A stretch of DNA of 64,000 bases from assembly GCA_022072505.1 (NCBI GenBank), contig JAJVHU010000029.1:5917-69916 (forward strand). The letters are read 5' to 3'. Positions 50,575-64,000 of the stretch are shown in pieces. The notes under the pieces are model-generated. The model saw nothing but the letters and a program-made list of their open reading frames with translations. It made no database searches and was not told where the DNA came from. This DNA comes from Phycisphaerae bacterium. GTDB lineage: Bacteria; Planctomycetota; Phycisphaerae; UBA1845. Position 1 is the stretch's first letter; every line of letters begins with the position of its first letter. The position numbers were made by a program, and so were the translations under genes.

Positions 50575-50974
50575 TTGTCGATCCTTGTATTGATTCACGC
50601 ATTCAGTTGACGCGCCACAGGATGGCGTCGTTTTCATGGGTCATATACAAACGGCCGCGCAGCCGGTCGCAACCCGGGACGAATCCTTGGGAGTGACTGA
50701 TGATCTTTACAGTCCGTTTCAGTCGGCGCGCACTATCGGCGCGAAGTCGTATGCGGCGCGCCGTGGTAACAAGCAGCTCATGCCCCGCCGCGGGGGAAGC
50801 CGCAGACTTAAGAACCCAGGAAATCCCTACGCGCAGACGTGCAGGCGACGCAGTCCAGGGTTGCGGCGGCGCCCAGCGGGAGGACGCGACGGAAAGGGGG
50901 GTTGGTCCGCCACCTACTGCGCAGTCAGCGCATCCGCCGTCCGCCGGGTTCGCCGCACCCGATTGATTCAATCG

Positions 50975-51742
50975 TTAATCATCGTCCCCTTTATCATCAT
51001 CGTCGTCATCGTCGTCGCCATCCTCATCATCATCGTCGTCATCGTCGTCGCCATCCTCGTCATCATCGTCTCCATCGTCGCCGCTGGCCGTGCGGCCGGT
51101 GGGGAAGACCACGATCTCGCGGGACTTGCCGTTGAGATTGCCGGAGATTTCGTAGACGACAATCATCTGCCGCTCGATCGTCACCGGGGCGCCGGCGAAG
51201 TGCTTCTGCACGGCGACCCGGACCACGGCGGGCGCCTTGTCGAGGGCGACGGTGTCCTCGATTTCCACGAGCGTGCCGTCCTCGGTGACTGTGGCCTCAT
51301 AGGACGTTCCGTTAACGGTCCAGGCCGCTTCGTAGACGATGACTCGACCCTCCTGCTCGCGCGTGACGCTCGTTATTGGGGCTCCGTGGGCCACGCCGTT
51401 AAGCGCTTTCCGGGCGGCCTCGGGAACCTGATCCAGCGTCAGCTTGGCGGGGGGAAGGCGCGGCGCCTCGACGCTGCGACTCAGGACGTTGCCCTCGGCG
51501 TCCATGTGAATCTCGATGATTTCGCCGTTGATCTGAATCTCGGCCTCGTAGGTGGTCACGCCGTTTCGGGTCTCGCTTTCGATCTCCATGATCGCGCCAG
51601 CGCCCGCTTCCTTGAGCAGTGTCGCCTTCACACCAGCCGGCGCCTGATCCAGCGTGATCCGCACCTCCTGCGCGGGCGGCAGCGCCGCCGCGAGACACAC
51701 GATCGCCCCTCCGCAGAAAAACACCATCATCCGTACCGTCAT
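50975..51742 (-). CDS. secreted protein with three PepSY-like repeats and a poly-Asp C-terminal tail
   Basis: It has a signal peptide. There are three roughly 65-aa repeats of the form L(D/T)LDQ.P..(V/A)K..L......A.I..(I/V)..E...G..VYEA.....G. The tail reads GDDGDDDDEDGDDDDDDDDEDGDDDDDDDDKGDDD. Confidence 0.7.
   Translation of the reverse strand: MTVRMMVFFCGGAIVCLAAALPPAQEVRITLDQAPAGVKATLLKEAGAGAIMEIESETRNGVTTYEAEIQINGEIIEIHMDAEGNVLSRSVEAPRLPPAKLTLDQVPEAARKALNGVAHGAPITSVTREQEGRVIVYEAAWTVNGTSYEATVTEDGTLVEIEDTVALDKAPAVVRVAVQKHFAGAPVTIERQMIVVYEISGNLNGKSREIVVFPTGRTASGDDGDDDDEDGDDDDDDDDEDGDDDDDDDDKGDDD
50993..51058. repeat. perfect 2 x 33-nt tandem duplication encoding the poly-Asp tail
   Basis: ATCATCATCGTCGTCATCGTCGTCGCCATCCTC occurs twice back to back (50993-51025 and 51026-51058). 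Confidence 0.85.
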
Positions 51743-52187
51743 GACTGCATCCTTTCGGGAAAAACCGCTCGTCGCCGATGCATCGAGGCCTCCGCTCCCC
51801 GGAAACTAACCGGCGGGTGCTCGAGCGGTATTCTAGGACGCCAACCTTAAAGGAGGATGAGAAGACGACGCTGCGGTTTCCCGTGAGGCAACCTTCGCCT
51901 GACAGGGGACGCCGACGAGCATTGAGGGCGTGCGAGTTACCGACCCGAACCAACCCGCCGTTGCATCGCGGCGTGGACGGCGGCGTCCACTCATACGGTT
52001 TCGGGGTGAAGAAACGGTTGCGGATGTTCGAATCCGATCCGTACTTCCCCAACAGGAAAAGGAAGCGGAAGTTTGGGCACGCGGCGGGGATCTGGTCTCG
52101 AAAACGGGTATTCAACCCCAGGCGTATTGTGTCCGATAAAGCCTGCATCAGGCCTTGCAGCCGCAGAGTTGTTGAAAGGACGCATCC

Positions 52188-52856
52188 TTGAGCACGGTGA
52201 TCATGCCCGCGCCAGCCGCCCCATCGTCCGCGTCGCCTGAACCGGCCGAGCTCCTCGGCGCGACGCAGGCCGACCCCGACCGCGGCGACGCTTTTTACAC
52301 CCGGTTTTACGCCGACGGCGGCTGGCGCTACGGATTCCTGCGTGAGTGGTGGTGGTTGCGGCGCAACGTGGTGAAGCGGTTCGGGCTGGTTCGCGGCATG
52401 AACGCGCTGGAAGTCGCCTGCGGCGCGGGATTTCACACGCACGTCCTGAACCGGATGGGGTTTCGCTGCATCGGCGTGGACCGCAATCGCGCCGCTATCG
52501 ACTGGGCGCGACGAAAGCATCCCCGGTGGACGTATCACTGCGCGGACCTGGCGGACCTGCTGCCGGATCACGCGGGAACCTTCGACATCGTCCTCGCTCG
52601 AGGATGCAGCCACTATCATTACGACTTGTCGTCCGCGCAGGCGCTCGACACGACGCGCACGCTGCTTCGCTACCTCAAGCCCGGCGGCGTGTTCATCATG
52701 ACCATCGCCACCGACCTCTCGGGCCGCCGACCCGCCGGTCAGATCTGGAACAACACGCTTGACGACTACCGGCGCCACTTCGGCTCGTTCGGACTTCGGC
52801 ACGACGAGACCTGGGTGAGGGGCATGGCGCTCTGCGCCATCTACGCTCCCGTCTGA
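52188..52856 (+). CDS. class I SAM-dependent methyltransferase
   Basis: Motif I reads ALEVACGAGFHTHVLNRMG and motif II reads FDIVLARG. The start is TTG at 52188 or ATG at 52203. Confidence 0.8.
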   Translation: MSTVIMPAPAAPSSASPEPAELLGATQADPDRGDAFYTRFYADGGWRYGFLREWWWLRRNVVKRFGLVRGMNALEVACGAGFHTHVLNRMGFRCIGVDRNRAAIDWARRKHPRWTYHCADLADLLPDHAGTFDIVLARGCSHYHYDLSSAQALDTTRTLLRYLKPGGVFIMTIATDLSGRRPAGQIWNNTLDDYRRHFGSFGLRHDETWVRGMALCAIYAPV

Positions 52857-54229
52857 GTCGATCCACGCCCGCCCGCCAGCAGCCGGGCGATCGCGTCGCG
52901 TCGGCGCTTCGCGGCCTTTCCCGCCGCGTTCGCCAGGTCCGTCAGTTCGATCGTCAGCTCTGCGACCGTCGCAGGAACGGTTCCGGCGTCCGCGCTGCCG
53001 TCCGCGCGCGTCGGCGGTGAGAAGACCTTTCCCTGCGTGAATTCCGTGGCAATGTCGCGGTAAGCCTGGCGAAACGGAACGCCCGCCCGGACGCGCTCGT
53101 ACGCCTCGGCGGCGGCGAACATGTCGGGGGTGACGGCCTGCGTCATCCTCGCCCGGTCCGCCTCGAAGGCTTCGATCACCCGTGTCGCGACGCGAAGCAG
53201 GTCGGAGGTCTCGCCCGCGGCGCGGATCGCGGGGGCCTTGGTCAGTTGAAGATCGCGGTGGTAACTGCTCGGAAGCTTGCCGGCGACGTGCTCCAGTTCG
53301 CCGGCCCAGGCCCGGAGCCGCGCGGCGCGTCCCCGCAGCAGTTCCAGCGCGTCCGGGTTGCGCTTCTGAGGCATGATGGACGATCCGGTCGTCATCGACG
53401 CCGGCAACCGGAAGAAACCGAACTCCGCCGTCGTGAACAACACGAAGTCCCACGCCAGCTTCTCCAGCACCGCGCCGATGTCGGACGCATACCGAGTGAA
53501 CGCCAGCTCGTAGCGACCCCGGCTGTTCTGCACGTCGATCGCGCTGCGCTGCACCCGCGAGAAACCCAGCAGTTCGGCCGTGTACACCCGGTCCAGCGGC
53601 AGCGGAACGCCGAACCCGGCCCCGGTCCCCAGAGGACAGGCGTCGAGGCGATCCAGCAGGTGCAACCCGGCGCGCATCTGATCGGCCGCGCCCTCCGCGA
53701 ATGCCTGAAGCCACTGTCCCAGGCTCGACGGCATCGCCCGCTGAAGGTGAGTGTACCCCGGCATGACCGCGTCGCCGTCGCGCCCGACTCGCGTCACGCA
53801 AACCTCGGCGAACGTGTTCAACTCCTCGATCAGCCTCGAGGCGGCGTTGCAAAGAAAAAGCCGCATCGCCACCGCGACCTGGTCATTGCGCGAGCGCCCG
53901 GTATGAATCTTCTCTCCCGCCGGCCCCAGCGTCCGCGTCAGATGCGCCTCAATCGCCGTGTGTCCGTCCTCCAGCTCCGGCGGAATCCGGAACGCCCCGC
54001 GCCCGCTCAGCTCGGCGATGCGCGCCAGCTCCGCGACCAGCGCCGCCGACTCTCCGGGCGTCAGCAGCCCCGCCCGCTCGAGCGTCCTCGCGTGCGCCGC
54101 CGACGCCGCGCAATCCCAGGGCACAAGGAACAAATCCCAGTGCGGATCATCCCCCACGGTGAACCGGTGCAGCAAGGCATCGAGCGGTTCCCCCTTGTCC
54201 CAAAGTGTTCGTGCCGGTGACTCGCTCAT
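52841..54229 (-). CDS. argH: argininosuccinate lyase
   Basis: From ATG at 54229 it reads MSESPARTLWDKGEPLD, with the segments TGRSRNDQV and GSSIMPQKRNPDALELLRG (fumarate-lyase signature). The 141 upstream codons of the track ORF run through repeat DNA and are rejected. Confidence 0.9.
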   Translation of the reverse strand: MSESPARTLWDKGEPLDALLHRFTVGDDPHWDLFLVPWDCAASAAHARTLERAGLLTPGESAALVAELARIAELSGRGAFRIPPELEDGHTAIEAHLTRTLGPAGEKIHTGRSRNDQVAVAMRLFLCNAASRLIEELNTFAEVCVTRVGRDGDAVMPGYTHLQRAMPSSLGQWLQAFAEGAADQMRAGLHLLDRLDACPLGTGAGFGVPLPLDRVYTAELLGFSRVQRSAIDVQNSRGRYELAFTRYASDIGAVLEKLAWDFVLFTTAEFGFFRLPASMTTGSSIMPQKRNPDALELLRGRAARLRAWAGELEHVAGKLPSSYHRDLQLTKAPAIRAAGETSDLLRVATRVIEAFEADRARMTQAVTPDMFAAAEAYERVRAGVPFRQAYRDIATEFTQGKVFSPPTRADGSADAGTVPATVAELTIELTDLANAAGKAAKRRRDAIARLLAGGRGSTQTGA

Positions 54230-54249
54230 CCGTCGCGCTCTTGAACCGT

Positions 54250-54285
54250 GTTTCAAAACCGAGCCGCGCCCGTAAGGAAGCGTTC
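54250..54285 (-). repeat. REP-like element (plus strand reads GTTTCAAAACCGAGCCGCGCCCGTAAGGAAGCGTTC)
   Basis: It is the reverse complement of the copy-1 consensus with one difference (TAAGG versus TCAGG). Confidence 0.8.
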
Positions 54286-54400
54286 CTCCTCCAGCCTGCG
54301 CCGCGGGGCTTGCAACCGCGTCCTGATCCGTCCTGCTTCGCCTCGTTCCGATCCGCGAAGGCGTCGTTATTCCGCTTTGAAATACCCCCGCACGATCCGC
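54258..54400. repeat. 143-bp direct repeat, copy 1 (decayed copy of the argE 3' end plus its downstream region)
   Basis: By manual comparison it is base-for-base identical to 54461-54603. Confidence 0.85.
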
Positions 54401-54460
54401 GCCCCGGACGGCGTCTCCACGGGAAACAGCCGGTTGCGTGGACGTGGTCCGCACGTCCGC

Positions 54461-54603
54461 ACCGAGCCGCGCCCGTAAGGAAGCGTTCCTCCTCCAGCCT
54501 GCGCCGCGGGGCTTGCAACCGCGTCCTGATCCGTCCTGCTTCGCCTCGTTCCGATCCGCGAAGGCGTCGTTATTCCGCTTTGAAATACCCCCGCACGATC
54601 CGC
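54461..54603. repeat. 143-bp direct repeat, copy 2 (last 34 nt of argE plus 109 nt downstream)
   Basis: It is identical to 54258-54400 and contains the true argE stop codon at 54570-54572. Confidence 0.85.
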
Positions 54604-55649
54604 TCGTAAACCGCCGCTCCGTCGCGCAGCTCCGTCTCCGTGACGAACTCATCCGCCGTGTGCGATCGCTCCGGCCGCCCCGGACCGATCTTCACCGCCG
54701 GCGTCCCCGAAAGACACACCATGTCGCTCATCGACGGGCTTCCCGTCGGCGACGATCCCGGAAGCGCCGCCAGAACCGCCCGCACGATCCGCGCCCCGGA
54801 CGGCGTCTCCACGGGAACCAGCCGGTCGCTGTGGACGTGGACGTCGCTTCGCAGCGCGTTCCGCAGACGCTCGACCGCCGGCCCGTGCGGCTGAAGCGGC
54901 GTCGTCCGCACGTCCACGAAGAACTCGCAGGAATCCGGAATCACGTTTCGCGCCACGCCTCCGTGAATCTGGGTGACATGCGCGTGACACTTCCCCAGCA
55001 GCGGATGCGCCGGACCCCAGTCGAACGCCCGCAGCGCCGCCACGTCCTCTGCCGCGAGGTGGATCGCGTTCGCCGCCCGGTCCGGCGGTTCATGCGCCGG
55101 ATGCCCCGTTCGCCCGCGCGCCGTCAGCCGCAGAATCAGCAGCCCGCGCTGCGCCGTCATCGGCACAAGGCCCGTCGGCTCGCCCACCAGCGCCGCGTCG
55201 ATCGGCCCGATCCGGTCGAGGATCGTCCCCAGCCCCGCGCCGCTCGTCTCTTCCTCCGCGGTCAGCGCCAGGACGACGGTCCCGCCAAGGCGTTCACCGT
55301 GCTTCAAACCCTCCGCCAGCCGCAGCGCCGCCTGCATCATCGCGCTGACGCATCCCTTCGCGTCATTCGCGCCCAACGCCGTAATGCGCCCGTCCCCGCG
55401 ACGAGGCGTCCACGGATCCGCGCTCCAGCCTTCGCCCGGCGGGACCGTGTCCAGGTGGGAGTTCAGCAGTAATCGCGGTCGAGGCGCGTCCCCGATTTCG
55501 CACCAGACATTGCAGCCGCCGCGCTCGAGGCGCAACCCGGCCGATGCCAGCTCCGCCGTCACCGCATCCACGATCGCGCCTTCGTCGCGCGACAGGCTGC
55601 GGATCGACGCCAGCCGCACAAGCCGCTCGACCAGCGCGTCGTCGTTCAT
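54570..55649 (-). CDS. argE: M20-family deacetylase (ArgE-like; probable N-acetylcitrulline/acetylornithine deacetylase)
   Basis: The M20 motifs are NSHLDTVPPG, GANDAKG and TAEEETSGAG. It sits within the arg operon and has a 4-nt overlap with argB. Confidence 0.8.
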   Translation of the reverse strand: MNDDALVERLVRLASIRSLSRDEGAIVDAVTAELASAGLRLERGGCNVWCEIGDAPRPRLLLNSHLDTVPPGEGWSADPWTPRRGDGRITALGANDAKGCVSAMMQAALRLAEGLKHGERLGGTVVLALTAEEETSGAGLGTILDRIGPIDAALVGEPTGLVPMTAQRGLLILRLTARGRTGHPAHEPPDRAANAIHLAAEDVAALRAFDWGPAHPLLGKCHAHVTQIHGGVARNVIPDSCEFFVDVRTTPLQPHGPAVERLRNALRSDVHVHSDRLVPVETPSGARIVRAVLAALPGSSPTGSPSMSDMVCLSGTPAVKIGPGRPERSHTADEFVTETELRDGAAVYERIVRGYFKAE

Positions 55650-56560
55650 TTCCCGATCCCGTCAGACGTGACCCCGCGCCGCCCCACGATCAGCGTCCCG
55701 CAACCTGCGTTGGTGAACACTTCGCCCAGCAGCGTGTCGCGCACCACGCCGTTGATGATGTGGACGCGGTCCACTCCGCCCGTCAGCGCGTCCAGACACG
55801 CCCGGATCTTCGGCAGCATCCCTCCGCTGATGACCCCGCGCTCGATCAACGCGCCGACTTCGTCCGTCGAAAGCTGCGAGAACAACGTCGCCGGGTTGTT
55901 CACGTCCGCCAGCACGCCGTCCACCGTCGTCAGAAGAAAGTACTTCGTCGCCTCGACGCGCACCGCCAGCGCCGACGCCACCGTGTCCGCGTTCACGTTG
56001 TACACCTGGCCCGCGTCATCCGCCGCCAGCGAGCACACCACCGGGACGTACCCCAGCGACATCAGGTGCAGCAGCGGCGCGGGATTCACCTCCGCCACGT
56101 CCCCGACGTAACCGTAATCCACGTCCACCGTCGCCCCGCCGTCCTGCACGCGCTGCACCGGTCTGCGCACCGCCCGGATCAACCCCGCGTCCACCCCCGA
56201 AAGCCCGATGGCCGACAGCCGCCGCGCCCGGCACGACGCCAGCACGTCCGTATGCACCGACCCGGCGAACACCATCGTCGCCAGCCGCAGCGTCTCCGCG
56301 TCCGTCACGCGCCGCCCCGCGACGATCCGCGGTGCAAGACCCGTCTTCGCGCTGAGCGCGTTCATCTGCTCCCCGCCGCCGTGGACGAGGATGAGTTGAA
56401 TCCCGAGCTGGTGCAGCAGGGCGCACTGCTCGATGACGTGGTCCAGCACCGGTCCGGGCGAGCACAACCCGCCTCCGAGCTTCACCACGAACGTCCGCCC
56501 CTTGTACGCCCGAAGATACGGAATCGCCCCCCGAAACGTGCTCAAATCAACCGTGTGCAT
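55646..56560 (-). CDS. argB: acetylglutamate kinase
   Basis: The segments IPYLRAYKGRTFVVKLGGG, LVHGGG and NVNADT are present. Confidence 0.9.
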   Translation of the reverse strand: MHTVDLSTFRGAIPYLRAYKGRTFVVKLGGGLCSPGPVLDHVIEQCALLHQLGIQLILVHGGGEQMNALSAKTGLAPRIVAGRRVTDAETLRLATMVFAGSVHTDVLASCRARRLSAIGLSGVDAGLIRAVRRPVQRVQDGGATVDVDYGYVGDVAEVNPAPLLHLMSLGYVPVVCSLAADDAGQVYNVNADTVASALAVRVEATKYFLLTTVDGVLADVNNPATLFSQLSTDEVGALIERGVISGGMLPKIRACLDALTGGVDRVHIINGVVRDTLLGEVFTNAGCGTLIVGRRGVTSDGIGK

Positions 56561-56593
56561 CGATGCTCCAACCGCTCAACCCGACGACTGAAG

Positions 56594-56637
56594 TTCGCAT
56601 TCAGAAATCCGGATTCCGCATTCCTCATTCCGCGTTC
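56594..56637 (-). repeat. GAATGCGG-type repeat overlapping the argF' stop codon
   Basis: The minus strand reads GAACGCGGAATGAGGAATGCGGAATCCGGATTTCTGAATGCGAA. The argF' stop is the TGA inside GGAATGAGG. Confidence 0.75.
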
Positions 56638-57632
56638 AACAGTTTCATCACCACCGCCATCTGCGCCCACATCCGGTTCTCCGCCTGATCCACCACCACG
56701 CGGTGCCGGCTGTCCAGCGCCTCGTCCGCGATGACCACGTTCCTCCGCACCGGGAGGCAGTGCATCAGCAGCGCTTCGTCTTTGCCGAAGTGCCGCAGGG
56801 CGACGGTCCAGTCCCGATGCGCCCGGAAGCTCGCGGTCTGCTCGTCCGGCTTGCCGTAAAGCGCCGCGCTCCCCCAGCTCTTGACGTACACGACGTCCGC
56901 CGCGCGGCACGCCGGCGTCTGCTCATGCGCGATCTCGAACGACGTTCCCGCTTCCGCGCACCACCGCCGCGCCGTCGCCATCACGTCCGCGTTCAATTCG
57001 TACCCCGGCGGATGCGCGACGGTCACGTGCATCCCCGCGCTCGCCGCCGCCAGCGCCGCCGAGTGCGGAACCGCCATCGGCAGCCCCTTCACGTGCGGCG
57101 CCCACGTCAGCACGAAGCGCTTCCCCCGCGCGTCGCGCAGCTTCTCCTCGATCGTCATCCGGTCCGCCAGCCCCTGACACGGATGCTCCATCGCCGATTC
57201 CATGTTGATGATCGGGACCGTCGCGTGCCGCGCGAACGACCGGATCACCGCGTCCTTCGCGTCCCCCGCCGCGTCCTTCAACCCCGCGAACGTCCGCACG
57301 CCCAGCACGTCGCAGTACCGCGAAAGCACCGGCGCGGCCTCCCGGATGTGCTCCGCCGCCGCCCCGTCCATCACCACGCCGTCCCGATGCTCCAGCGCCC
57401 ACGTGTCGCCGCCGACGTTCAGGCAGATCGCATGACCCCCGAGCCGCGCCATCAGCGACTCGAACGACGTCCGCGTCCGCAGCGACGGGTTGAAGAACAC
57501 CATCCCCATCACCCGCCCGCGCAAAGCGTCCTTCGGAAGGCGATCGCGCCGCGACTTCAACGTGGTCGCCGCAACCAGCAACTTTCGAAGCGGTTCGAGC
57601 GAATCAGCAGTCCAATGAACGAAACCGTCCAT
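56625..57632 (-). CDS. argF': N-acetylornithine carbamoyltransferase (AOTCase type)
   Basis: FFNPSLRTRTSFE, INMESAMEHPCQ, VYVKSWGS, HCLPVRRNV and DQAENRMWAQ match the Xanthomonas-type AOTCase pattern as I remember it (FFNPSMRTRTSFE, HPCQ, HCLPLRRNV), rather than the STRTR of classical OTCase. ATG at 57632 follows a GGGAG RBS. Confidence 0.85.
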   Translation of the reverse strand: MDGFVHWTADSLEPLRKLLVAATTLKSRRDRLPKDALRGRVMGMVFFNPSLRTRTSFESLMARLGGHAICLNVGGDTWALEHRDGVVMDGAAAEHIREAAPVLSRYCDVLGVRTFAGLKDAAGDAKDAVIRSFARHATVPIINMESAMEHPCQGLADRMTIEEKLRDARGKRFVLTWAPHVKGLPMAVPHSAALAAASAGMHVTVAHPPGYELNADVMATARRWCAEAGTSFEIAHEQTPACRAADVVYVKSWGSAALYGKPDEQTASFRAHRDWTVALRHFGKDEALLMHCLPVRRNVVIADEALDSRHRVVVDQAENRMWAQMAVVMKLLNAE

Positions 57633-57719
57633 ATTGGCTCCCGTCCGGCTTCTCGCTCTTGCGCGGAATCCGAAACCCAACTCCACCTCTGCGTTCTCTG
57701 CGCACTCTGCGGATATTTC

Positions 57720-57843
57720 TCACACCGGCCTCACCGAAGGCCGCCACAACCCCGTCGTCTCCTCCAGTCCGCACATCAGATTCATGTTCTGGATCGCCGT
57801 CCCCGCCATGCACTTGACTAGGCTGTTCAGCGCCGCCATCGCG
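57720..57843 (-). pseudogene. displaced, decaying copy of the argC 3' end (last about 40 codons)
   Basis: It encodes ...AALNSLVKCMAGTAIQNMNLMCGLEETTGLWRPSVRPV*, compared with ...AALDNLVKGMAGTAIQNMNLMCGLEETTGLWQPSVRPV* in the functional argC. It is a 124-nt direct repeat of 58589-58712, with about 10 mismatches by manual alignment. Confidence 0.8.
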
Positions 57844-57915
57844 TGCCGAGAGCACTCCCGTCGGGGCGCGCATTCGCGACGCAAAGTCCCCCTTGCCGTC
57901 GACCACCCGTGAGAA

Positions 57916-58098
57916 CTACACTGGAACCCTCTCCGCCGTTCGCTTAGCGCGCAACTCGGCTTGCAGGCGTCGGAGCTCTTCCGTCTGTTCCTTCCAGTAC
58001 TGTTCAACCTGCTCGCGTGAGAGACCTTCCAGCCGCTGCCGGATTCGCTCTGCGCCTTGGCGCTTCATCTCGACGCAGTCAAACTCCTTCTTCTTCAT
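57916..58098 (-). CDS. small helical protein, candidate partner/antitoxin of the PIN protein
   Basis: ATG at 58098 has a GGAGG RBS 9 nt upstream, inside the PIN gene's 3' end. The product is charged and coiled-coil-like (MKKKEFDCVEMKRQGAERIRQRLEGLSREQVEQYWKEQTEELRRLQAELRAKR). Its function is inferred from position only. Confidence 0.5.
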   Translation of the reverse strand: MKKKEFDCVEMKRQGAERIRQRLEGLSREQVEQYWKEQTEELRRLQAELRAKRTAERVPV

Positions 58099-58549
58099 AC
58101 TCAATCACCTCCGATGGCGACAGGATCAAAATCTTCGGCAGGCCGTTCAAGGTGTTGACTGCCTGATACAGGGGCACCTTATCGTAGTGCACGATGTGCC
58201 GGAAATTCCAGCTGACGATGCAGTCGCAACGTCCCACCGAGGCAAGGGCTACGTGGAGTGCGTCGTTGGCGCTGCGTCGTGAAACGACCCCGGCGGTCAA
58301 GTATGCTTCCTGCAGCTTGAGGGATTTCGTGTCTGTTTCGAGTAGCTCCATGTCGGGCAGGTGCTCCGCAAACAGATCGCGGACCCTCGGAGGCGCCAAG
58401 TCAATCTCGCGCAGCACGACAGCGGAGGTCTTCAACAAGAACCGCCCGGCGATGGCCTGCGAAAGCAGCTCTCGGCTCGCAACCTCAAACTGAACGTCAA
58501 AGCACCCCCCAAACACCGAGGTGTCAACATAGATCGTCAACGCGCCCAT
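58079..58549 (-). CDS. PIN-domain protein (VapC-like toxin candidate)
   Basis: It has the layout of acidic residues seen in PIN domains: IYVDTSVFGG (Asp 1), LREI (Glu), NDALHVALA (Asp 3) and the C-terminal SWNFRH. Local G+C is visibly lower than in the flanks. Confidence 0.8.
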   Translation of the reverse strand: MGALTIYVDTSVFGGCFDVQFEVASRELLSQAIAGRFLLKTSAVVLREIDLAPPRVRDLFAEHLPDMELLETDTKSLKLQEAYLTAGVVSRRSANDALHVALASVGRCDCIVSWNFRHIVHYDKVPLYQAVNTLNGLPKILILSPSEVIEYEEEGV

Positions 58550-58588
58550 GCCGCCGCTCCCGTTTACCGCGATCTCATCGACCCCGCC

Positions 58589-59689
58589 TCACACCGGCCT
58601 CACCGACGGCTGCCACAACCCCGTCGTCTCCTCCAGTCCGCACATCAGGTTCATGTTCTGGATCGCCGTCCCCGCCATCCCTTTCACGAGGTTGTCCAGC
58701 GCCGCCATCGCGATCACCTGCCGTCCGCGCACCGCCACGCCGATGTCGCAAAAGTTCGACCCGACGACGTCTTGCAGCGTCGGCGAGCCCTCGACGATGC
58801 GCACGAAAGGCGACCCGGCGTAAAACGCGCGATACCGCCCCGAAACCGACTCCGCCGTCGGCGCGCTCGAACCCGCGGGCGCGAGTGCCGCAGCCGCCGC
58901 CTCGTCAAGCGTCACATGCGCCGTCACGAAGATCCCGCGGGTCACGTCCATGCTCTGCGCCACGAACGACAGCGTGATCCGCTCGCCCGCCGCGTCGCCC
59001 CACGCCTGAAGAATCTCCGGTTCGTGCTGATGCGCCAGCGGCTTGTACGCCCGGAAATCCGCATGCCGCGTCGGGTGATGCGTCGTCTCCTTGAGCTGCC
59101 GCCCCGACCCCGACGACCCGGTCTTCGCGTCCACGACCACCGTCCCGCGGAACCCGCCGCCCACCAGCGGCGCCGCCGCCAGGATCGACGCGCTCGCCAG
59201 GCACCCGGGATTCGCAATGCACGCCGCCTCCCGGACCCGATCCCGATTCAACTCGGGCAACCCGTACAAGAAGCGCGGCCGCAAGTCCGCCAACCACGGC
59301 GTCTCCCCGTAGTGCGCCTCATGCACCTCGCGCCGCGCCAACCGAAAATCGCCGGACAGATCGATCACCTTCAACCGGCTTGCCTGCTTCGCGTCCATCT
59401 CGCGAAGGAGCCGTTCGACCGCCTTACCGCTCGACCCGTTCGGCAGCGCCGAGAACACCACCGCATGCTCGCCTCCCAGCAGCCGCTCGAACTCGATCCG
59501 CTCCGCCATCGCCAGGTCATAAAACCCGCGCAGGTGCGGATGCACGCGGTCCACGCGCTGCCCCGCCTGCGACGACGTGACCACGCTGACCACCTCGACG
59601 TGCGGATGCTGCGTCAGCAGGCGCAGCAACTCCCCCGCGCCGTACCCGCTCCCGCCGAGGATTGCGACTTTGATAAAACGCTCATTCAT
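58589..59689 (-). CDS. argC: N-acetyl-gamma-glutamyl-phosphate reductase
   Basis: The segments VAILGGSGYGAGELLRLL (Rossmann fold), the active-site IANPGCLASA and the C-terminal DNLVKGMAGTAIQNMN are present. Confidence 0.9.
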   Translation of the reverse strand: MNERFIKVAILGGSGYGAGELLRLLTQHPHVEVVSVVTSSQAGQRVDRVHPHLRGFYDLAMAERIEFERLLGGEHAVVFSALPNGSSGKAVERLLREMDAKQASRLKVIDLSGDFRLARREVHEAHYGETPWLADLRPRFLYGLPELNRDRVREAACIANPGCLASASILAAAPLVGGGFRGTVVVDAKTGSSGSGRQLKETTHHPTRHADFRAYKPLAHQHEPEILQAWGDAAGERITLSFVAQSMDVTRGIFVTAHVTLDEAAAAALAPAGSSAPTAESVSGRYRAFYAGSPFVRIVEGSPTLQDVVGSNFCDIGVAVRGRQVIAMAALDNLVKGMAGTAIQNMNLMCGLEETTGLWQPSVRPV

Positions 59690-59839
59690 CCCGAGCCGCG
59701 GGCTTCAGCCCGCGCGATCAACCCTGTACCCCAGTGCTTGCACCTATCCGCCCCTTCCCCGCGCAATGCCTCGCTTGGACGGCACGCCTCGGCGCTTCAA
59801 GATCGCCGCGGGCGAATCTCATCGCTTGCTGAAAACGCT

Positions 59840-59875
59840 GTTTCAAAACCGAGCCGCGCCCGTAAGGAAGCGTTC
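59840..59875 (-). repeat. REP-like element (plus strand reads GTTTCAAAACCGAGCCGCGCCCGTAAGGAAGCGTTC)
   Basis: It is identical to 54250-54285 by eye and lies 70 nt downstream of the stop codon of the 59945-60991 gene. Confidence 0.8.
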
Positions 59876-59944
59876 TTATTTCGCCCGGTTCGGAGGATTA
59901 TGAAACAGCGTGTAAGCCGCCCCTTGTTCGAGGACTCGCGCGGG

Positions 59945-60991
59945 CTAAAGCCCGCGGTTCAGACGCCCCGCCACGAACGCCCCGAACTCCTCCGGATGCG
60001 TCCGCGCGTTGATCGCCGTCAGCCCCAGCTCCCGCTCGACGAACCCCGTGCCTACCGCGTTGTCCGTCGCCGGGCCGGTCACCACGTCGATCTTCAGCCC
60101 GAACCGCTCGTCCATCACCCGCTGCGCCCCCCAGACCCCGACCGGGTCATTCGCGCACATGACGATCGCTCCGGCCGCCTTCATCAGCGCCGCGTCGCCC
60201 AGAATCGCCTGCACGCCGTATTCGCCGAGAATTCCGTCTCCCAGCTCCGCGACGATCACCTGCGCCCCCGCGTCCGCCAGATGCCGCACCAGCCCCCGCG
60301 CCACCCGCTTCGACGTCTCCGGCGACGTCGTCACCACGCCCGCGTCCGTGAACGACACCGCCCACTTCGCCCCGTAATCCATCATCGACAGCGTATCCCG
60401 CCGCAGGGACACGCCCGTCAGCTTGCATCCGCCCACCGTCATCCCCTGACGCGACAGGTGGCGGATCAGGCGCGACGCCGCCGCCGTCTTCCCACTGTTC
60501 ATGCACGTCCCCGCGACGAACGCCACCGGCACGTCCGTGCGCGGCTCATCGCGCAAGGCGATCGCGTTCATCCCGATGTGCGCCGGAACGCCCGAGCGGT
60601 CCTCGAAATCCGGGAACGTCAGCACCGCCCCGAGAATCTCCACCTCGAACGGCTTGCCCACCTCCGGGTTCTGCGAGGTGCATACGCCGATGACGCCGCC
60701 GAGATTCAGCAGGTGCAGCCGGTCGCCGACGTTGATCGCCTCGGGCACGTAACCCGAGTACCCGTGCAGCGCATTGCGATGCCCGAGCACGCCGACGATC
60801 ACGTCGCCTTCATGCAACGTCACCATCCTCCCGTGTACGTCCTCGATCTGGTTGTACACCGACTTCGTGCCGTGGATGCGCCCGGCCACGAGAAACCCTT
60901 CGCGGGCGATGACCGCGGAGGCAACGCGGATATCGCGCCCGACAGGCACGTTGCGCGTCGCGGAAGCAATTTTGTCCACAAGAATTCGCAT
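59945..60991 (-). CDS. uncharacterised protein with an internal P-loop (GTCMNSGKT), embedded in the arg operon
   Basis: This 348-aa ORF has normal codon usage. An N-terminal roughly 150-aa beta-rich region precedes VAFVAGTCMNSGKTAAASRLIRHL (a GTxxxxGKT loop of the BioD/CobQ/DUF1611 kind). I cannot assign a family with confidence. Confidence 0.7.
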   Translation of the reverse strand: MRILVDKIASATRNVPVGRDIRVASAVIAREGFLVAGRIHGTKSVYNQIEDVHGRMVTLHEGDVIVGVLGHRNALHGYSGYVPEAINVGDRLHLLNLGGVIGVCTSQNPEVGKPFEVEILGAVLTFPDFEDRSGVPAHIGMNAIALRDEPRTDVPVAFVAGTCMNSGKTAAASRLIRHLSRQGMTVGGCKLTGVSLRRDTLSMMDYGAKWAVSFTDAGVVTTSPETSKRVARGLVRHLADAGAQVIVAELGDGILGEYGVQAILGDAALMKAAGAIVMCANDPVGVWGAQRVMDERFGLKIDVVTGPATDNAVGTGFVERELGLTAINARTHPEEFGAFVAGRLNRGL

Positions 60992-61122
60992 GAAAGCTGC
61001 TTAGCTTTGAGCTGCCGGCGGTTAGCCGGAACCCCTTTCGATCCAGACGCCAACGATGCGAGCCGTCACCACGCTCGGCGGCTTCCAGCTCATCCCCTCA
61101 TCCACGCAGAGCTTGAATCTGT

Positions 61123-61162
61123 ATTCCGCATTCCGCATTCCGCATTCGTTATTCGTCATTCC
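61123..61162 (-). repeat. GAATGCGG-type repeat overlapping the argG stop codon
   Basis: The minus strand reads GGAATGACGAATAACGAATGCGGAATGCGGAATGCGGAAT. The last argG codons and its TAA stop are part of the repeat. Confidence 0.75.
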
Positions 61163-62348
61163 CCTGCATCCCATCCGCCACCCCATAAATTTTGCAGAAC
61201 GCCGCCGCTTCCTCGCCCGTCCACAGCTTGCTGCCCTCGCCGTACTTCGCCTTGTCGCTGTTCATCAGCGAGTGCGGGCTGGTCGCGCCCAGCACGGTGG
61301 CGATCCGATCTTCGAGCCGCACGGTCACGCGCCCCGTCACCTTCCGCTGCGACGATTCCAGAAACGCCTCGAGGTCGCGCATGATCGGGTCGAAAAAGCG
61401 GGCTTCATGCACGTTCGCGCCGTACACGTCGCCCAGCGTTCGCTTCCAGAACTGCTGCGGCTTCGAGAGCACCAGTTTCTCCAGCTCCCGATGCGCCGCG
61501 ATCAGCACGGTCGCCGCAGGCGCTTCGAACGCCACGCGCCCTTTGATGCCCAGGATCGTGTCGCCCACGTGCATCCCGCGCCCGATCCCGCGCCGTCCGG
61601 CGCGGGTGTTCAAACGCTCGATCAGCGTAACCGGCGAAAGCCGCTCCACGGCGCCGGCGTTCCCGAAGGCCGTCGGCACGCCTTGCTCGAACTCGATAAC
61701 GACGTCCTCAGGCTCTCCCGGGCGATCCGCCGCCAGCGCCGTCAGCACGTAAGCCGACTCGGGGAGCACGCCGTCGCTCTTGTGTGTCTCTCCGCCGCCG
61801 ATCGTCGCTCCCCACAGTCCGCGGTTGATCGAGTACACGCCCGTCTTCGGCGGGATGTCTACGCCGCGGTCCGCGAGATATTTCATCTCCGCCTCGCGCG
61901 ACAGCGCCTGCGCCCGGATCGGGGTGACGATCTCGACCCCCGGCGCCAGAACCCGGAACGCCAGGTCGAACCGCACTTGATCGTTCCCCGCTCCCGTCGA
62001 CCCGTGAACCAGCGTCGTCGCTCCCACGCGCCGTCCGTATTCCGCGACGCACTTCGCCTGCACTAACCGCTCCGCGGACACACACAACGGATACACGTCG
62101 CCGCGCAATGCGTTGGCGAAAAGCAGGTATTTCAGCGTTCGGTCAAACAGCTCTCCTCGCGCGTCGATCAGATGAAACGCCGCCGCGCCCGCCGCCTCGG
62201 CCCGCTGCGCGATCAGCCGCCGCTCGTCGTCGTCAAAGCCGCCTGTATCCACGGCCACCGCGTGGACGGCGTATCCCTGTTCGCGCAGAAACACGGCGCA
62301 GTAAGTCGTGTCCAACCCGCCAGAAAATGCGAGCGCGGCGATGCGCAC
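61149..62348 (-). CDS. argG: argininosuccinate synthase
   Basis: The segments AFSGGLDTT (PP-loop) and GSTGAGNDQVRF are present, and the protein is of full length. Confidence 0.95.
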   Translation of the reverse strand: MRIAALAFSGGLDTTYCAVFLREQGYAVHAVAVDTGGFDDDERRLIAQRAEAAGAAAFHLIDARGELFDRTLKYLLFANALRGDVYPLCVSAERLVQAKCVAEYGRRVGATTLVHGSTGAGNDQVRFDLAFRVLAPGVEIVTPIRAQALSREAEMKYLADRGVDIPPKTGVYSINRGLWGATIGGGETHKSDGVLPESAYVLTALAADRPGEPEDVVIEFEQGVPTAFGNAGAVERLSPVTLIERLNTRAGRRGIGRGMHVGDTILGIKGRVAFEAPAATVLIAAHRELEKLVLSKPQQFWKRTLGDVYGANVHEARFFDPIMRDLEAFLESSQRKVTGRVTVRLEDRIATVLGATSPHSLMNSDKAKYGEGSKLWTGEEAAAFCKIYGVADGMQGNDE

Positions 62349-62368
62349 GATCGTCTCTCCCGTCTTGA

Positions 62369-62833
62369 TTAAGGTCGCTGCGCCGAGACGCGGCGAAGGA
62401 GGGCGATCACCCGACCCTGATCACTGCGGCTGCGAACCGCCACGAACACCGTGTCGTCGCCCGCGAGCGTACCCACGATCTGCGGAACCTTCTTGCGATC
62501 CAGCGCCACCGCGACGGAATTGGCGGCGCCGGTGGCCGTGCGCACCACGATCAGGTTCGCTCCGACCGGTTCGAACCCCGTGATTAATGCGAACGAAGGA
62601 TCATTGTGCAGGTCGTTCGTTCGTTCTGTCCCGAGATCCTCAACCCTCCGGTAAAGCCCGGAAACCTTGACCAGTCCCAACTCGCGTATGTCCCGGCTCA
62701 TGCTGGCTTGCGTCGTCCGAAAGCCCCGTTCCCGTAGCGCGGAGACGAGTTCGCGTTGGCTGGCCAGGGGGCGGGTGGTCAGAACCTGCATTAACGCGCG
62801 TTGCCGGTCATGCTTGTGAAGATTGTCGGGCAT
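62369..62833 (-). CDS. argR: arginine repressor
   Basis: The N-terminal wHTH reads QRELVSALRERGFRTTQASMSRDIRELGLVKV. The C-terminal arginine-binding core reads GTLAGDDTVFV. Confidence 0.9.
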   Translation of the reverse strand: MPDNLHKHDRQRALMQVLTTRPLASQRELVSALRERGFRTTQASMSRDIRELGLVKVSGLYRRVEDLGTERTNDLHNDPSFALITGFEPVGANLIVVRTATGAANSVAVALDRKKVPQIVGTLAGDDTVFVAVRSRSDQGRVIALLRRVSAQRP

Positions 62834-62844
62834 AAGCTCCTCGC

Positions 62845-62884
62845 GGACTAATTAATCGCGTCCGATGGCATGATTATACATGCC
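62845..62884. promoter_or_regulatory. candidate ArgR operator (two AT-rich palindromic boxes about 22 bp apart) upstream of argR
   Basis: CTAATTAATCG (62848-62858) and CATGATTATACATG (62869-62882) are isolated AT-rich, partly palindromic sites in GC-rich DNA, 12-50 nt upstream of the argR start. The spacing is compatible with tandem ARG boxes. This is a pattern-level call only. Confidence 0.3.
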
Positions 62885-63105
62885 GTGAAGTCCGTGTCAA
62901 TCTTCGCGCCCCTCACTGGCCGATCCGGTTTCGACGACCGCGCGGAGAGGACGCCAGTTCATCAGGCACGAAGTTTGCCCTGCAAGCGGCGGGCGTCGGT
63001 TGCGTCGCGCAGGGCGGCGACGTACAACGCTTCGCTTTCCCGAAAGCAACCGGTGAGGGCTGGACCACGGATCAGGGGCGAAAAGCGCCCCGCAGGGAGG
63101 TGTCG

Positions 63106-64000
63106 GTGGCGATTCCGTATAACAAACGTACGCACCAATGTGGCGAGCTTCGAGCCCCCCAGGTCGGGCAGAAGGTCCGCCTCGCGGGCTGGGTGGACAG
63201 CTACCGTGACCACGGCGGGATGGCGTTCATCGACCTGCGCGATTACACGGGCATCACCCAGGTTCGGTTCAACCCGGAAGGCAACGCGGCCGCCCTCGAG
63301 CTGGCGCGGTCGTTGCGCACCGAAGACGTGATCGTCATTGAGGGCACGGTGGTGTCGCGCGGCACGAACATCAACCCGCGGATTCCCACGGGTGAAATCG
63401 AGGTCATCGGCGAAGCGCTCGACCTCCTGTCCAAGGCCGAGCCGCCGCCCTTTGAGATCAGCGACCGCACCGACGCCAGCGAGGAGCTTCGCCTCAAGCA
63501 TCGCTACCTGGATCTGCGCCGGCCCGTCATGCAGCGGGTCTTCCGCATGCGCCACGTGATCGCCAAGACGATCCGCGATTACTTCGACGCCAACGGTTTT
63601 GTCGAGATCGAGACGCCGTTTCTGACGAAGTCCACGCCTGAAGGCGCCCGCGACTACCTCGTGCCGTCGCGCGTGCGCCAGGGATCGTTCTACGCCCTGC
63701 CGCAGTCGCCGCAGATCTTCAAGCAGCTTTTCATGGTCGCGGGCTTCGAGCGCTACGCCCAGATCGTCCGCTGCTTCCGCGACGAGGATCTCCGCGCCGA
63801 CCGCCAGCCGGAGTTCACCCAGCTCGACATGGAGATGTCGTTCGTGCAGGCCGACGACGTCATGACGATGGTCGAAGGCTGCGCGAAGGCGATTTTCAGG
63901 AACGCGCTGGGCATCGACGTCCGCACGCCGCTGCCGCGGATGACCTATCAGGAGGCGATGGACCGCTTCGGCATCGACCGCCCGGACACGCGCTTCGGAC
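63106..64000 (+). CDS. aspS: aspartate--tRNA ligase, N-terminal part (runs off the right window edge)
   Basis: GTG at 63106 follows a GGGAGG RBS. The translation contains [69 protein letters not shown] and [25 protein letters not shown]. It is not in the ORF track because it has no stop inside the window. Confidence 0.9.

Follow-up and report, generated by a model that had tools for sequence, protein, structure and literature searches.

How gene modules enter chromosomes without a transposase or integrase is poorly understood. Some integrative and cis-mobilisable elements insert at the 3′ end of a protein-coding gene; examples are those of the ICESt1/CIME family, which use fda in Streptococcus thermophilus, have a common, defined attachment core, and descend from relatives that carry an integrase. 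In VapBC modules, a PIN-fold toxin with conserved acidic residues is preceded by an antitoxin gene with a DNA-binding domain (AbrB, RHH, Phd/YefM, or MerR). Chromosomal integrons typically carry toxin-antitoxin cassettes among their cargo (PMC2654758). For restriction-modification gene complexes, reports of insertion with long target duplication go back to 2000 (Nobusato et al. 2000, Gene 259:99; Furuta, Abe & Kobayashi 2010, PMC2853133). In these cases modules without mobility genes are flanked by target duplications of 45-420 bp, which vary in length and often extend across a start or stop codon, and the target gene survives (PMC2853133; PMC3874152). In the literature surveyed, no experiment on the insertion step itself is described. 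Here we describe a small insert in the arg operon of a Phycisphaerae bacterium that fits insertion with long target duplication more closely than any other known category; it is neither an integrase element nor an integron cassette.

Results

A two-gene insert between two copies of the argC 3′ end

A repeat search of the window, the 64-kb stretch of DNA analyzed here, recovered a pair of direct repeats at 57719-57843 and 58588-58712 that are 125 nt long, 92% identical, and spaced 869 nt apart. The repeat takes in the final 122 nt of argC, the TGA stop codon, and the base after it; its copy number within the window is two, and its sequence is unique argC coding sequence there. The first-pass annotation of this DNA had reported a 124-nt duplication of the argC end, and computed alignment of 57720-57843 to argC confirms it at 92% identity, with the length corrected to 125 nt. 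In an ungapped alignment, the copy attached to argC (copy A) and the distal copy (copy B) differ at 10 of 125 positions, of which 7 are packed into the 18 nt at repeat positions 17-34 (p~0.0013 against a uniform spread), in agreement with the roughly 10 differences and the 18-nt cluster first counted by eye. Local alignment against shuffled sequences gave no significant homology beyond the repeat at either edge, as an older, longer duplication would leave (p=0.07 and p=0.15); the right inner segment of the insert does not significantly resemble argC upstream of the repeat (p=0.07). The left inner segment likewise does not significantly resemble the native spacer, and its secondary structure is unremarkable. 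An assembly artefact is ruled out because both copies and the whole structure are also present, at 99.93% identity, in an independent assembly (L001; GCA_009612775.1). The features of the region are as follows, with L003-L006 denoting the related loci described below.

56625..57632, minus strand: argF′ (N-acetylornithine carbamoyltransferase), 335 aa, ATG at 57632; NCBIfam NF003384 at 393 bits (cutoff 288)
57633..57718, minus strand: native argC-argF′ spacer, 86-87 nt; aligns base for base to the 87-nt spacer of L003/L004
57719..57843, minus strand: repeat copy B, the displaced, non-functional argC 3′ end, continuous with the native spacer; 18-nt patch with 7 changes, DNLVKG to NSLVKC
57844..58587, minus strand: whole insert, 744 nt, GC 0.60; missing from the empty sites L003-L006
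57844..57915, minus strand: right inner segment (72 nt of the insert), non-coding; fold z about 0, no hairpin of attC type and no GTT/AAC core by eye
57916..58098, minus strand: small partner gene, 60 aa, putative antitoxin; 20-nt overlap with the PIN gene, GGAGG 9 nt upstream
58079..58549, minus strand: PIN-fold gene, 156 aa, putative VapC-like toxin; AF2, Foldseek, and sub-threshold Pfam PIN
58550..58587, minus strand: left inner segment (38 nt of the insert); PIN ATG preceded at 7 nt by a GGGAG ribosome-binding site, no promoter
58588..58712, minus strand: repeat copy A, the functional argC 3′ end, continuous with the argC body; repeat search and alignment
58589..59689, minus strand: argC (N-acetyl-gamma-glutamyl-phosphate reductase), intact, 366 aa; Pfam Semialdhyde_dhC_1 1.5e-41, Semialdhyde_dh 5.7e-25

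The insert (57844-58587) has a GC content of 0.60, compared with 0.70 and 0.66 in its flanks, and its 744 nt match the lower-GC segment of about 745 bp seen at first reading. The PIN-fold gene and the overlapping 60-codon gene are its entire gene content: as the first-pass annotation stated, no integrase, transposase, or terminal inverted repeat was found in it, and searches of Pfam, NCBIfam, and PADLOC detected no methyltransferase or restriction domains. We found no promoter inside the cassette, and only weak 5-6-bp stems as possible terminators. An Rfam search of positions 50000-64000 returned no match, and the window contains no other copy of the 18-nt patch of copy B that could have served as its template. 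The start of argF′ is most likely the ATG at 57632, which was chosen by the gene caller for L001 and aligns with the relatives, and the distance from the end of copy B to argF′ is therefore 87 nt, not the 33 nt initially given. The small ORF most likely starts at the ATG at 58098, giving a protein of 60 aa and an overlap of 20 nt with the PIN gene; its 60 codons, GGAGG ribosome-binding site, and overlap had been recognized from the outset, with the overlap put at 26 nt.

Empty sites in related Phycisphaerae

In the closest relatives, L003/L004 (86% ArgC identity over the full length) and L005/L006 (77%), argC directly adjoins argF′ and the cassette is absent, which is the synteny expected if the arg operon received an insertion, as first proposed. 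In all four Phycisphaerae, argC has one 3′ end, to which both repeat copies align, and an 87-nt spacer that aligns to the sequence following copy B. The match of a single argC end to both copies therefore indicates that the insertion is specific to this lineage and duplicated 125 bp of its target. Homologs of the PIN or small gene were found in none of the 80 argC loci examined, and conservation of the arrangement across the clade, which would argue against an insertion, was not seen in any of these relatives. All three assemblies of the source population carry the arrangement; a search for a cassette-free allele in that population found no record of the exact ArgC protein, and the exact ArgF′ protein led only to a contig whose start lies within the repeat.

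Comparison of these loci shows an ancestral order of argC, 87-nt spacer, and argF′, and a present order in which argC, with copy A as its end, is followed by the 744-nt insert, copy B, the same 87-nt spacer, and argF′. Because copy A is continuous with the argC body and copy B with the ancestral spacer, the structure is target-insert-target. With the 125-nt target on both sides of the insert, the argC reading frame is therefore complete at 366 aa, consistent with the initial description of the attached copy as intact, and the operon is broken by the cassette alone.

A VapC-like PIN protein and a small helical partner

The larger ORF matches Pfam PIN (PF01850) with E=0.0015 and 19.5 bits, under the gathering threshold of 23.6, so that the original PIN assignment stands on predicted structure and not on the Pfam score. 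The AF2 model of the protein (pLDDT 89.2) has as its best Foldseek matches nearly all VapC toxins (prob 1.0, TM 0.53-0.69), led in the PDB by VapC11, VapC2, VapC15, and VapC21 (E 9e-5 to 2.4e-4, TM 0.53-0.64). Residues D9, E48, and D96 are retained together with S113-W-N-F, and the three acidic residues are invariant in 22 homologs. Neither cassette protein matched PADLOC or NCBIfam, and a sequence-profile search of the PDB returned nothing for the PIN protein and only noise for the small partner, which also had no Pfam match. An AF2 model of the partner, built with six database homologs, predicts a two-helix hairpin (H8-23 and H28-56, pLDDT 88.6).

The first-pass annotation had observed that the PIN-first, partner-second order is the reverse of classical VapBC, and both this order and the gene overlap (1-20 nt) are conserved family-wide. 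In about 88 of 96 loci (about 90%), the gene immediately after the PIN gene encodes a homolog of the partner whose N terminus carries the motif K-x-FDCVEMKR. This conserved pairing and the translational coupling of the two genes suggest that their products may interact, and the pair is a putative toxin-antitoxin system.

The module resembles VapBC in its PIN-fold toxin candidate with VapC structures as best matches, its overlapping two-gene operon, its patchy distribution across many phyla, and the NCBI labeling of its homologs as VapC family toxins. Unlike in VapBC, the toxin gene comes first, and no upstream antitoxin gene with an AbrB, RHH, Phd/YefM, or MerR domain is present; the gap of 38 nt between argC and the PIN gene leaves no room for one. 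Further differences are that the partner is a 50-70 aa two-helix hairpin with no AbrB, RHH, Phd, or MerR DNA-binding domain, no known antitoxin domain, and no Pfam family, that the Pfam PIN score of the toxin candidate is sub-threshold, and that this PIN family has an invariant Asn (SWNF) after the last strand, a possible substitute for the usual fourth acidic residue.

Homologous cassettes and their flanking repeats

The PIN gene and its partner form a very large, horizontally spread module family, with >3,700 homologs and members in many phyla; the nearest PIN homolog is only 60% identical. Together with the lower GC of the insert, this distant nearest homolog and broad distribution point to a foreign origin of the insert. 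Direct repeats of 18-219 nt bracket 7/42 homologous cassettes when 400-nt flanks are considered and 12/71 with 800-nt flanks, compared with 3/299 and 7/300 random pseudo-cassettes (Fisher p about 2e-5; locus L160 was left out of the scan because of a spurious self-match). In 10 of the 12 bracketed cassettes the insert is 650-1000 nt long and comprises two genes with short flanks, the other two measuring 1343 and 1957 nt, and the 12 repeats are mutually unrelated in sequence; among these cassettes, the empty-site comparison covers the window locus. The repeats are of mixed origin. In L179-L186 they are a multi-copy inter-cassette repeat of ~150 nt, and in L172 a 43-nt hsdS 3′ end is present three times around two successive inserts, so part of the enrichment comes from arrays and not from unique target duplications. 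Many cassettes have no long repeat, such as that of L002 between ispD and ispF.

An identical PIN protein, P0097, occurs in at least four neighborhoods, within toxin-antitoxin cassette arrays parted by a ~150-nt repeat, and the exchange boundaries of these arrays fall inside that repeat. A larger related element was not found among the 96 homologous loci. Distant homologs occur on 4 of 72,556 plasmids (three from Leptospira, one from Thiodictyon), in none of the isolated phages, and on only 7 low-identity viral contigs; we considered a plasmid or phage vehicle and rejected it, as homologs are nearly absent from the plasmids and phages searched.

Comparison with insertion with long target duplication

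The locus has three of the properties by which Furuta (2010) recognized this class: both repeats align to one single-copy empty site (L003/L004, L005/L006), the duplication exceeds 30 bp (125 nt), and the insert is below 20 kb and free of integrase, transposase, and phage genes (744 nt, two ORFs). The class also excludes repeats that are multi-copy in the genome, and across the 64-kb window this repeat has two copies. The class was originally defined by restriction-modification cargo, whereas the cargo here is a PIN-fold gene and a small helical protein. The two cases share an addiction-type module without a mobility gene, long direct repeats of variable length, a repeat that extends across the stop codon and keeps the target gene intact, and a deviating GC content of the insert. 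They differ in that the cargo here is PIN-fold and toxin-antitoxin-like, the insert is far smaller (0.74 kb), and the repeat copies have diverged in one clustered patch; moreover, the double-strand cutting invoked by those authors is not obvious for a VapC-like RNase.

Alternative explanations

An unlikely alternative that must still be weighed is that the insert is a cis-mobilisable element, or what is left of a site-specific integrative element without its integrase. In this view, an argC-3′-like attachment segment on a circular element recombined with argC. The element would have given argC a new last ~25 nt and displaced the old end, with the integrase lost or supplied in trans. We polarized the mismatches between the copies with L003/L004 as the outgroup and compared them more widely with 23 relatives. 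Copy A has the outgroup state at 7/8 5′-side variable sites, the eighth matching neither copy, and differs from L003/L004 at the two 3′-most variable sites (CAG CCG vs CGG CCT). Copy B keeps the outgroup state at those two 3′ sites and has its changes concentrated in the 18-nt patch at its 5′ edge; its first description as a decaying remnant is too simple. A single crossover in the 37-nt identical stretch would resolve the copies into a ‘native’ parent with 9/10 outgroup states and a ‘donor’ parent with 0/10, and the chance of this mismatch ordering is 1/45. This polarity favors the element, as do the end of the repeat exactly at the argC stop codon and the threefold hsdS end of L172, which resembles tandem accretion at an attachment site. 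However, the two ‘derived’ copy A sites are variable across relatives, and homoplasy could therefore explain the polarity; at position 106, the copy A state is the majority among the 23 relatives. As a separate possibility, we considered a foreign origin of copy B and set it aside, although the evidence is not decisive: copy B is never closer to the 23 relatives than copy A and is worse in all but two ties, and only three synonymous states in its patch match alleles common elsewhere.

Other features of the locus speak against an integrative element. The 744-nt insert is too small for a recombinase, neither inverted repeats nor structure are found at its non-coding ends, and the flanking repeats of the family are unrelated and range from 18 to 219 nt, which argues that there is no family-wide attachment site. 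As in ICESt1/CIME, the repeats consist of a coding gene's 3′ end, the insertion leaves that gene restored, and the DNA between the repeats encodes no recombinase; unlike in that family, we found no integrase-bearing relative, conserved attachment site, or family-wide target. Specifically, no recombinase was detected in the insert and no larger parent element among the 96 homologous loci, and no conserved attachment core is shared by the 12 repeat-bearing cassettes. The earlier analogy to elements that bring a replacement 3′ end for their target gene is thus not the best fit, both copies being outwardly continuous with native sequence. It should be noted that the repeat end at one base past the stop codon and the mismatch polarity fit an element-borne homology segment about as well.

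A second scenario, which we judge quite improbable, is that the host first duplicated the gene 3′ end in tandem, by slippage or template switching, and that the cassette then inserted at the junction as a neutral landing pad. Its support is a second, cargo-free duplication in the same operon, at the argE/argH junction, where a 143-nt stretch occurs twice (100% identity), accompanied by a diverged fragment from within argE that joins at a 13-nt repeat; this duplication is absent from L003/L004, and mismatches in its distal copy are likewise clustered at the 5′ edge. This scenario requires two independent events at one spot, and it leaves unexplained the ~8-20-fold enrichment of repeats around the cassette family in unrelated genomes.

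Mobilization as an integron-type gene cassette, by an integron integrase or within an integrase-less attC cluster, is very hard to reconcile with the locus. Like integron cassettes, the insert is a minimal, promoter-poor unit of ~0.7 kb that relies on outside transcription, and like toxin-antitoxin cassettes of integrons it has homologs in repeat-punctuated arrays (L179-L186). In contrast to them, the window has no attC or integrase, and its flanking repeat is unique host coding sequence. By eye and by folding, no attC (RYYYAAC ... GTTRRRY) is present at the cassette 3′ end: the 72-nt 3′ segment has no GTT/AAC cores and folds like shuffled controls (z = -0.07 and +0.49). The P0097 repeat is not attC-like in folding either (z = -0.86), and integrase-mediated insertion makes no 125-bp target duplication. 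Lastly, an ancient fixed arrangement or an assembly artefact, for which nothing speaks beyond the presence of the structure in all three assemblies of the population, has practically no likelihood given that the cassette is missing from all relatives and that the two copies, with 10 differences between them, recur in an independent assembly.

Discussion

Taking these comparisons together, we consider it probable that a horizontally acquired module of a VapC-like PIN gene and a 60-aa partner, most likely a toxin-antitoxin pair in reverse order, inserted at the end of argC with a long target duplication. On this reading, the partner would be translationally coupled to the PIN gene and the pair would act as an addiction module. 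Lacking its own promoter and terminator, the cassette is presumably transcribed by read-through of the ArgR-controlled arg operon. The insertions that survive may be those that chanced to duplicate a gene end. An insert between 125-bp repeats would be expected to be lost by recombination, and the persistence of the cassette could be explained if loss of an addiction module is counter-selected and the mismatch patch reduces uninterrupted homology to <=37 nt. Several routes could have produced the duplication: (a) a template switch to foreign DNA and back, landing 125 nt upstream, in the course of break repair or replication; (b) a widely staggered break that was filled in; or (c) an 869-bp circle from an insertion-bearing donor, re-integrated by a single crossover. 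A bolder proposal, which we regard as unlikely, is that the PIN-partner pair is itself a minimal mobile unit that generates long variable target duplications and repeat-punctuated arrays, through a DNA-acting PIN nuclease or as cargo of another recombination route.

The insertion at argC combines a verified empty site, a minimal cargo of 744 bp, and a target within an essential biosynthetic operon, and it shows that the long-target-duplication signature, described for restriction-modification complexes, also occurs with a PIN-type toxin-antitoxin-like module. The same signature with PIN-type cargo argues that a DNA-cutting restriction enzyme is not required. It further suggests that addiction, through counter-selection of repeat-mediated loss, may explain why such insertions mostly carry addiction modules. 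With >3,700 homologs, about one in six of them repeat-flanked, the family could support systematic study, and if the pair does prove to be a minimal mobile unit, it would provide a 0.75-kb experimental model for the unsolved mechanism of long target duplication. In this bacterium, a putative toxin now lies under arginine-responsive transcription, which may have physiological consequences.

Structure of the insertion and its empty site

The minus-strand arg operon runs in the order argR, argG, a conserved gene for a 348-aa protein, argC, the insert, argF', argB, argE and argH. The first-pass annotation had proposed that the 3' end of argC is duplicated around a stretch of lower-GC DNA, and our analyses confirmed this. 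A repeat search recovered one 125-nt direct-repeat pair (92% identity), and the distal segment aligned to the end of argC without gaps and with 10 mismatches. The argC-end repeat occurs twice within the 64 kb, flank comparison found no similarity between the copies beyond either repeat edge, and the 744 nt between them have a GC content of 0.60, compared to 0.66-0.70 in the flanks.

58588-58712, minus strand: copy A, attached to argC (last 122 nt of argC, the TGA stop codon and one base)
57719-57843, direct repeat of copy A: copy B, distal to argC
58079-58549, minus strand: PIN-fold gene
58098 (most likely ATG start), minus strand: small partner gene, 60 aa, with GGAGG 9 nt upstream

A second, independent assembly contig (GCA_009612775.1) shares 99.93% identity with the window over 2,684 nt and has the two repeat copies; the repeat structure is therefore not an assembly artefact, and we ruled out this explanation. 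A third assembly of the same population (an SRR10609163 contig) is identical to window positions 54779-57772 and starts within 37 nt that the two copies of the argC-end repeat share without mismatch, where a short-k-mer assembly would be expected to break.

To place the insert in its lineage we used an ArgC scan of species-representative genomes, which returned 80 loci, none of them with a homologue of the PIN or small gene; the clade-wide conservation that the first-pass annotation had named as a sign of an ancient, fixed arrangement was thus not seen. In the four closest relatives (ArgC identity to the window of 86% in L003/L004 and ~77% in L005/L006), argF' begins 91-161 nt after argC with no cassette, in agreement with the synteny anticipated earlier. 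Direct argC-argF' adjacency also occurs in several further Phycisphaerae, and in more distant relatives an argD-like aminotransferase gene takes the position of argF'. At the DNA level, the one argC 3' end of L003/L004 is matched by copy A and by copy B alike, and the 87 nt past copy B correspond base for base to the argC-argF' spacer of these relatives as far as the argF' start codon (ATG); what follows copy A and what precedes copy B have no counterpart in them. The structure is therefore target-insert-target, with native DNA adjoining the outer edge of each repeat copy. Judged from these alignments, the cassette is an insertion specific to this lineage, and its empty site can be identified in the relatives. 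The inserted DNA is foreign; its arrival left argC intact and 125 bp of target sequence in duplicate.

The PIN gene and its small partner

The 156-aa product of the first cassette gene scored 19.5 bits against Pfam PIN, short of the gathering threshold of 23.6, and had no sequence-level relative in the PDB, profile search included. When its AF2 model (pLDDT 89.2) was compared using Foldseek, VapC or related PIN toxins made up seven of the eight best matches and most of the top 20 (VapC11, VapC2, VapC15 and VapC21; E from 9e-5, TM 0.53-0.64), and D9, E48 and D96 were invariant across 22 homologues. Together, these matches and residues support the original PIN assignment at the level of the predicted fold, and not at that of the Pfam profile. 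Homologues number >3,700 database proteins from many phyla at ~50-60% identity, several of which are named VapC family toxins by NCBI.

The small helical ORF with its GGAGG was also recovered downstream of the PIN gene, with an overlap of 20 nt from its probable start at ATG 58098 rather than the 26 nt first claimed. The PIN-first, small-second order is general: ~88 of 96 loci with PIN homologues have a 50-80-aa ORF at this position, usually overlapping the PIN stop codon by 1-20 nt and sharing an N-terminal motif, K-x-FDCVEMKR...W. These observations point to a conserved, translationally coupled module of PIN followed by partner. Structure prediction gave a two-helix hairpin for the partner, which had no match in Pfam, NCBIfam, PADLOC or PDB families. 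The most economical reading of the module would be a reverse-order toxin-antitoxin pair; its match to VapBC is partial, as the PIN fold agrees and the gene order and antitoxin type do not.

Two loci show further arrangements. L139 has an 18-nt exact repeat (3589-3606 and 4259-4276), of which one copy codes for PGEYKT at the C-terminus of the small protein and the other lies directly upstream of the PIN gene; this would be consistent with a tandem or circular precursor of the cassette. UPF0175 is a known PIN-associated antitoxin family, and in L170 (contig_5803, 3.2 Mb) a gene of this family (2698-2943) immediately precedes the PIN-plus-small pair, so that part of the cassette family may consist of modules with three genes.

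Flanking repeats across the cassette family

Homologous cassettes in metagenomes and genomes were examined for direct repeats of at least 30 bits in their flanks. With 400-nt flanks, 7 of 42 cassettes were bracketed by repeats, as were 12 of 71 distinct cassettes when the flanks were 800 nt; random 620-630-nt pseudo-cassettes in the same loci gave 3 of 299 and 7 of 300 (Fisher p ~2e-5). The bracketing repeats (18, 20, 25, 30, 43, 44, 47, 59, 80, 111, 125 and 219 nt) are mutually unrelated in sequence and mixed in nature, that of L089 being non-coding. Ten of the 12 bracketed inserts span 650-1000 nt, comprising the two genes and short flanks, in some cases with their own promoter; the remaining two are 1343 and 1957 nt.

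Locus L172, from Candidatus Moduliflexus flocculans (DF820456.1), has three copies of a 43-nt sequence (locus positions 1924-1966, 2921-2963 and 3698-3740), the 3' end of the type I restriction-modification specificity gene hsdS. A ~950-nt segment with three small ORFs lies between the first two copies and a PIN-plus-small cassette between the last two, as though insertions had followed one another at the end of a single gene. Another PIN homologue, P0097, is found in 17 contigs, with its cassette, identical each time, in at least four different neighbourhoods. These (L179-L186) are arrays of toxin-antitoxin cassettes (DUF6883-DUF4926, DUF2281-PIN, HigBA and DUF4258) with a ~150-nt repeat (90-97% identity) between neighbouring cassettes, and the shared sequence ends inside this repeat (-221 to about +853/+897 from the PIN start). 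The layout resembles an integron array, but the ~150-nt repeat does not fold as an attC site. In L002 the cassette lies between ispD and ispF with no long repeat, and other members likewise sit between operon genes. The PIN-plus-small family is clearly mobile as a two-gene cassette, and flanking repeats are its recurrent companion; more than one process may lie behind them, and the empty-site control pertains to the window case only.

Mismatches and further duplications in the arg operon

Seven of the 10 differences between copies A and B fall within 18 nt close to the 5' edge of copy B (clustering p ~0.001), a patch for which there is no template elsewhere in the window. The patch changes the invariant DNLVKG to NSLVKC in copy B, as first described, yet this copy retains the outgroup state at the two 3'-most sites. 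Polarised with L003/L004 as the outgroup, copy A has the ancestral state in the patch and at position 64 but reads CAG CCG rather than CGG CCT at those two sites, and the polarity of copy B is the mirror image. Given a single crossover, the sites would fall into a "native" set with 9/10 outgroup matches and a "donor" set with 0/10, an ordering with a chance of 1/45. As both 3' sites vary among 23 relatives, this polarity is at most a weak hint of single-crossover integration of a circle carrying a diverged target copy.

The operon contains a second duplication and other repeats.

54258-54850, minus strand: lineage-specific argE/argH duplication
54258-54400 and 54461-54603, minus strand: 143-nt pair, 100% identical
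54244-54321, 54447-54524 and 59834-59911, between arg genes: ~78-nt intergenic repeat element, 76-88% identity
56606-56630 and 61116-61147, minus strand: GGAATGC heptamer runs directly after the argF' and argG stop codons
59945-60991, minus strand: 348-aa protein gene between argG and argC

At the argE/argH junction, the argE 3' end is duplicated without a cargo gene, an arrangement absent from L003/L004. In each 143-nt unit, ~30 nt from the very end of argE and the TAA are followed by a downstream element of ~111 nt; a diverged internal-argE copy (54850-54778) precedes the distal unit, the join being a 13-nt repeat, CGGATCGTGCGGG, and mismatches are concentrated at the 5' edge of the distal copy. 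This cargo-free duplication and its 5'-edge mismatches suggest a lineage prone to template-switch-like events. The argE-argH spacer is 324 nt in the window and 98 nt in L003; the part holding the ~78-nt element, possibly a non-autonomous repeat of small size, finds no alignment in the L003 spacer. The GGAATGC runs gave five matches to an 18-mer (0.1 expected). The 348-aa gene keeps its position in most retrieved Phycisphaerae arg clusters, and its product is 94% identical to that of L003, exceeding ArgC; its sole domain match is a weak one to MobB/P-loop and it has no PDB sequence relative. It is an uncharacterised, arginine-pathway-linked gene.

Origin of the insertion and relation to known systems

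Among described categories, the nearest is one known from restriction-modification systems, insertion with long target duplication (Nobusato et al. 2000; Furuta et al. 2010, PMC2853133; review PMC3874152), in which repeats of ~45-420 bp flank an insert without mobility genes, both repeats align to the empty site, and the repeats often span a start or stop codon and leave the target gene intact (PMC2853133; PMC3874152). The window insertion shares these structural features, with copy number assessed within 64 kb, and differs in cargo. In a literature search of incomplete coverage, no type II toxin-antitoxin-like module was described as having this signature. The absence of an integrase, transposase or terminal inverted repeat, noted at the outset, held for the 744-nt insert, which also has no other mobility gene, attC-like structure, promoter or strong terminator. 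An integrase-borne element and an integron cassette are less likely readings, each lacking a defining feature: the insert has no recombinase gene for the former and no attC-like structure for the latter.

The long target duplication could have arisen by a template switch during repair or replication, to foreign DNA and back 125 nt upstream; by a widely staggered break that was filled in; or by single-crossover re-integration of an 869-bp circle from an already-inserted donor, which would account for the mismatch polarity. Selection would have kept an insertion whose duplication chanced to span the stop codon, the cassette would be transcribed by read-through from the arg operon, and as a putative addiction module it may have been kept from loss by recombination between its repeats.

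The initial description of a cassette inserted in the arg operon was thus largely right, and the insertion is best understood as a variant of a known, mechanistically unsolved insertion kind. Its interest would rise if the cassette family proves a tractable model for the mechanism of long target duplication.
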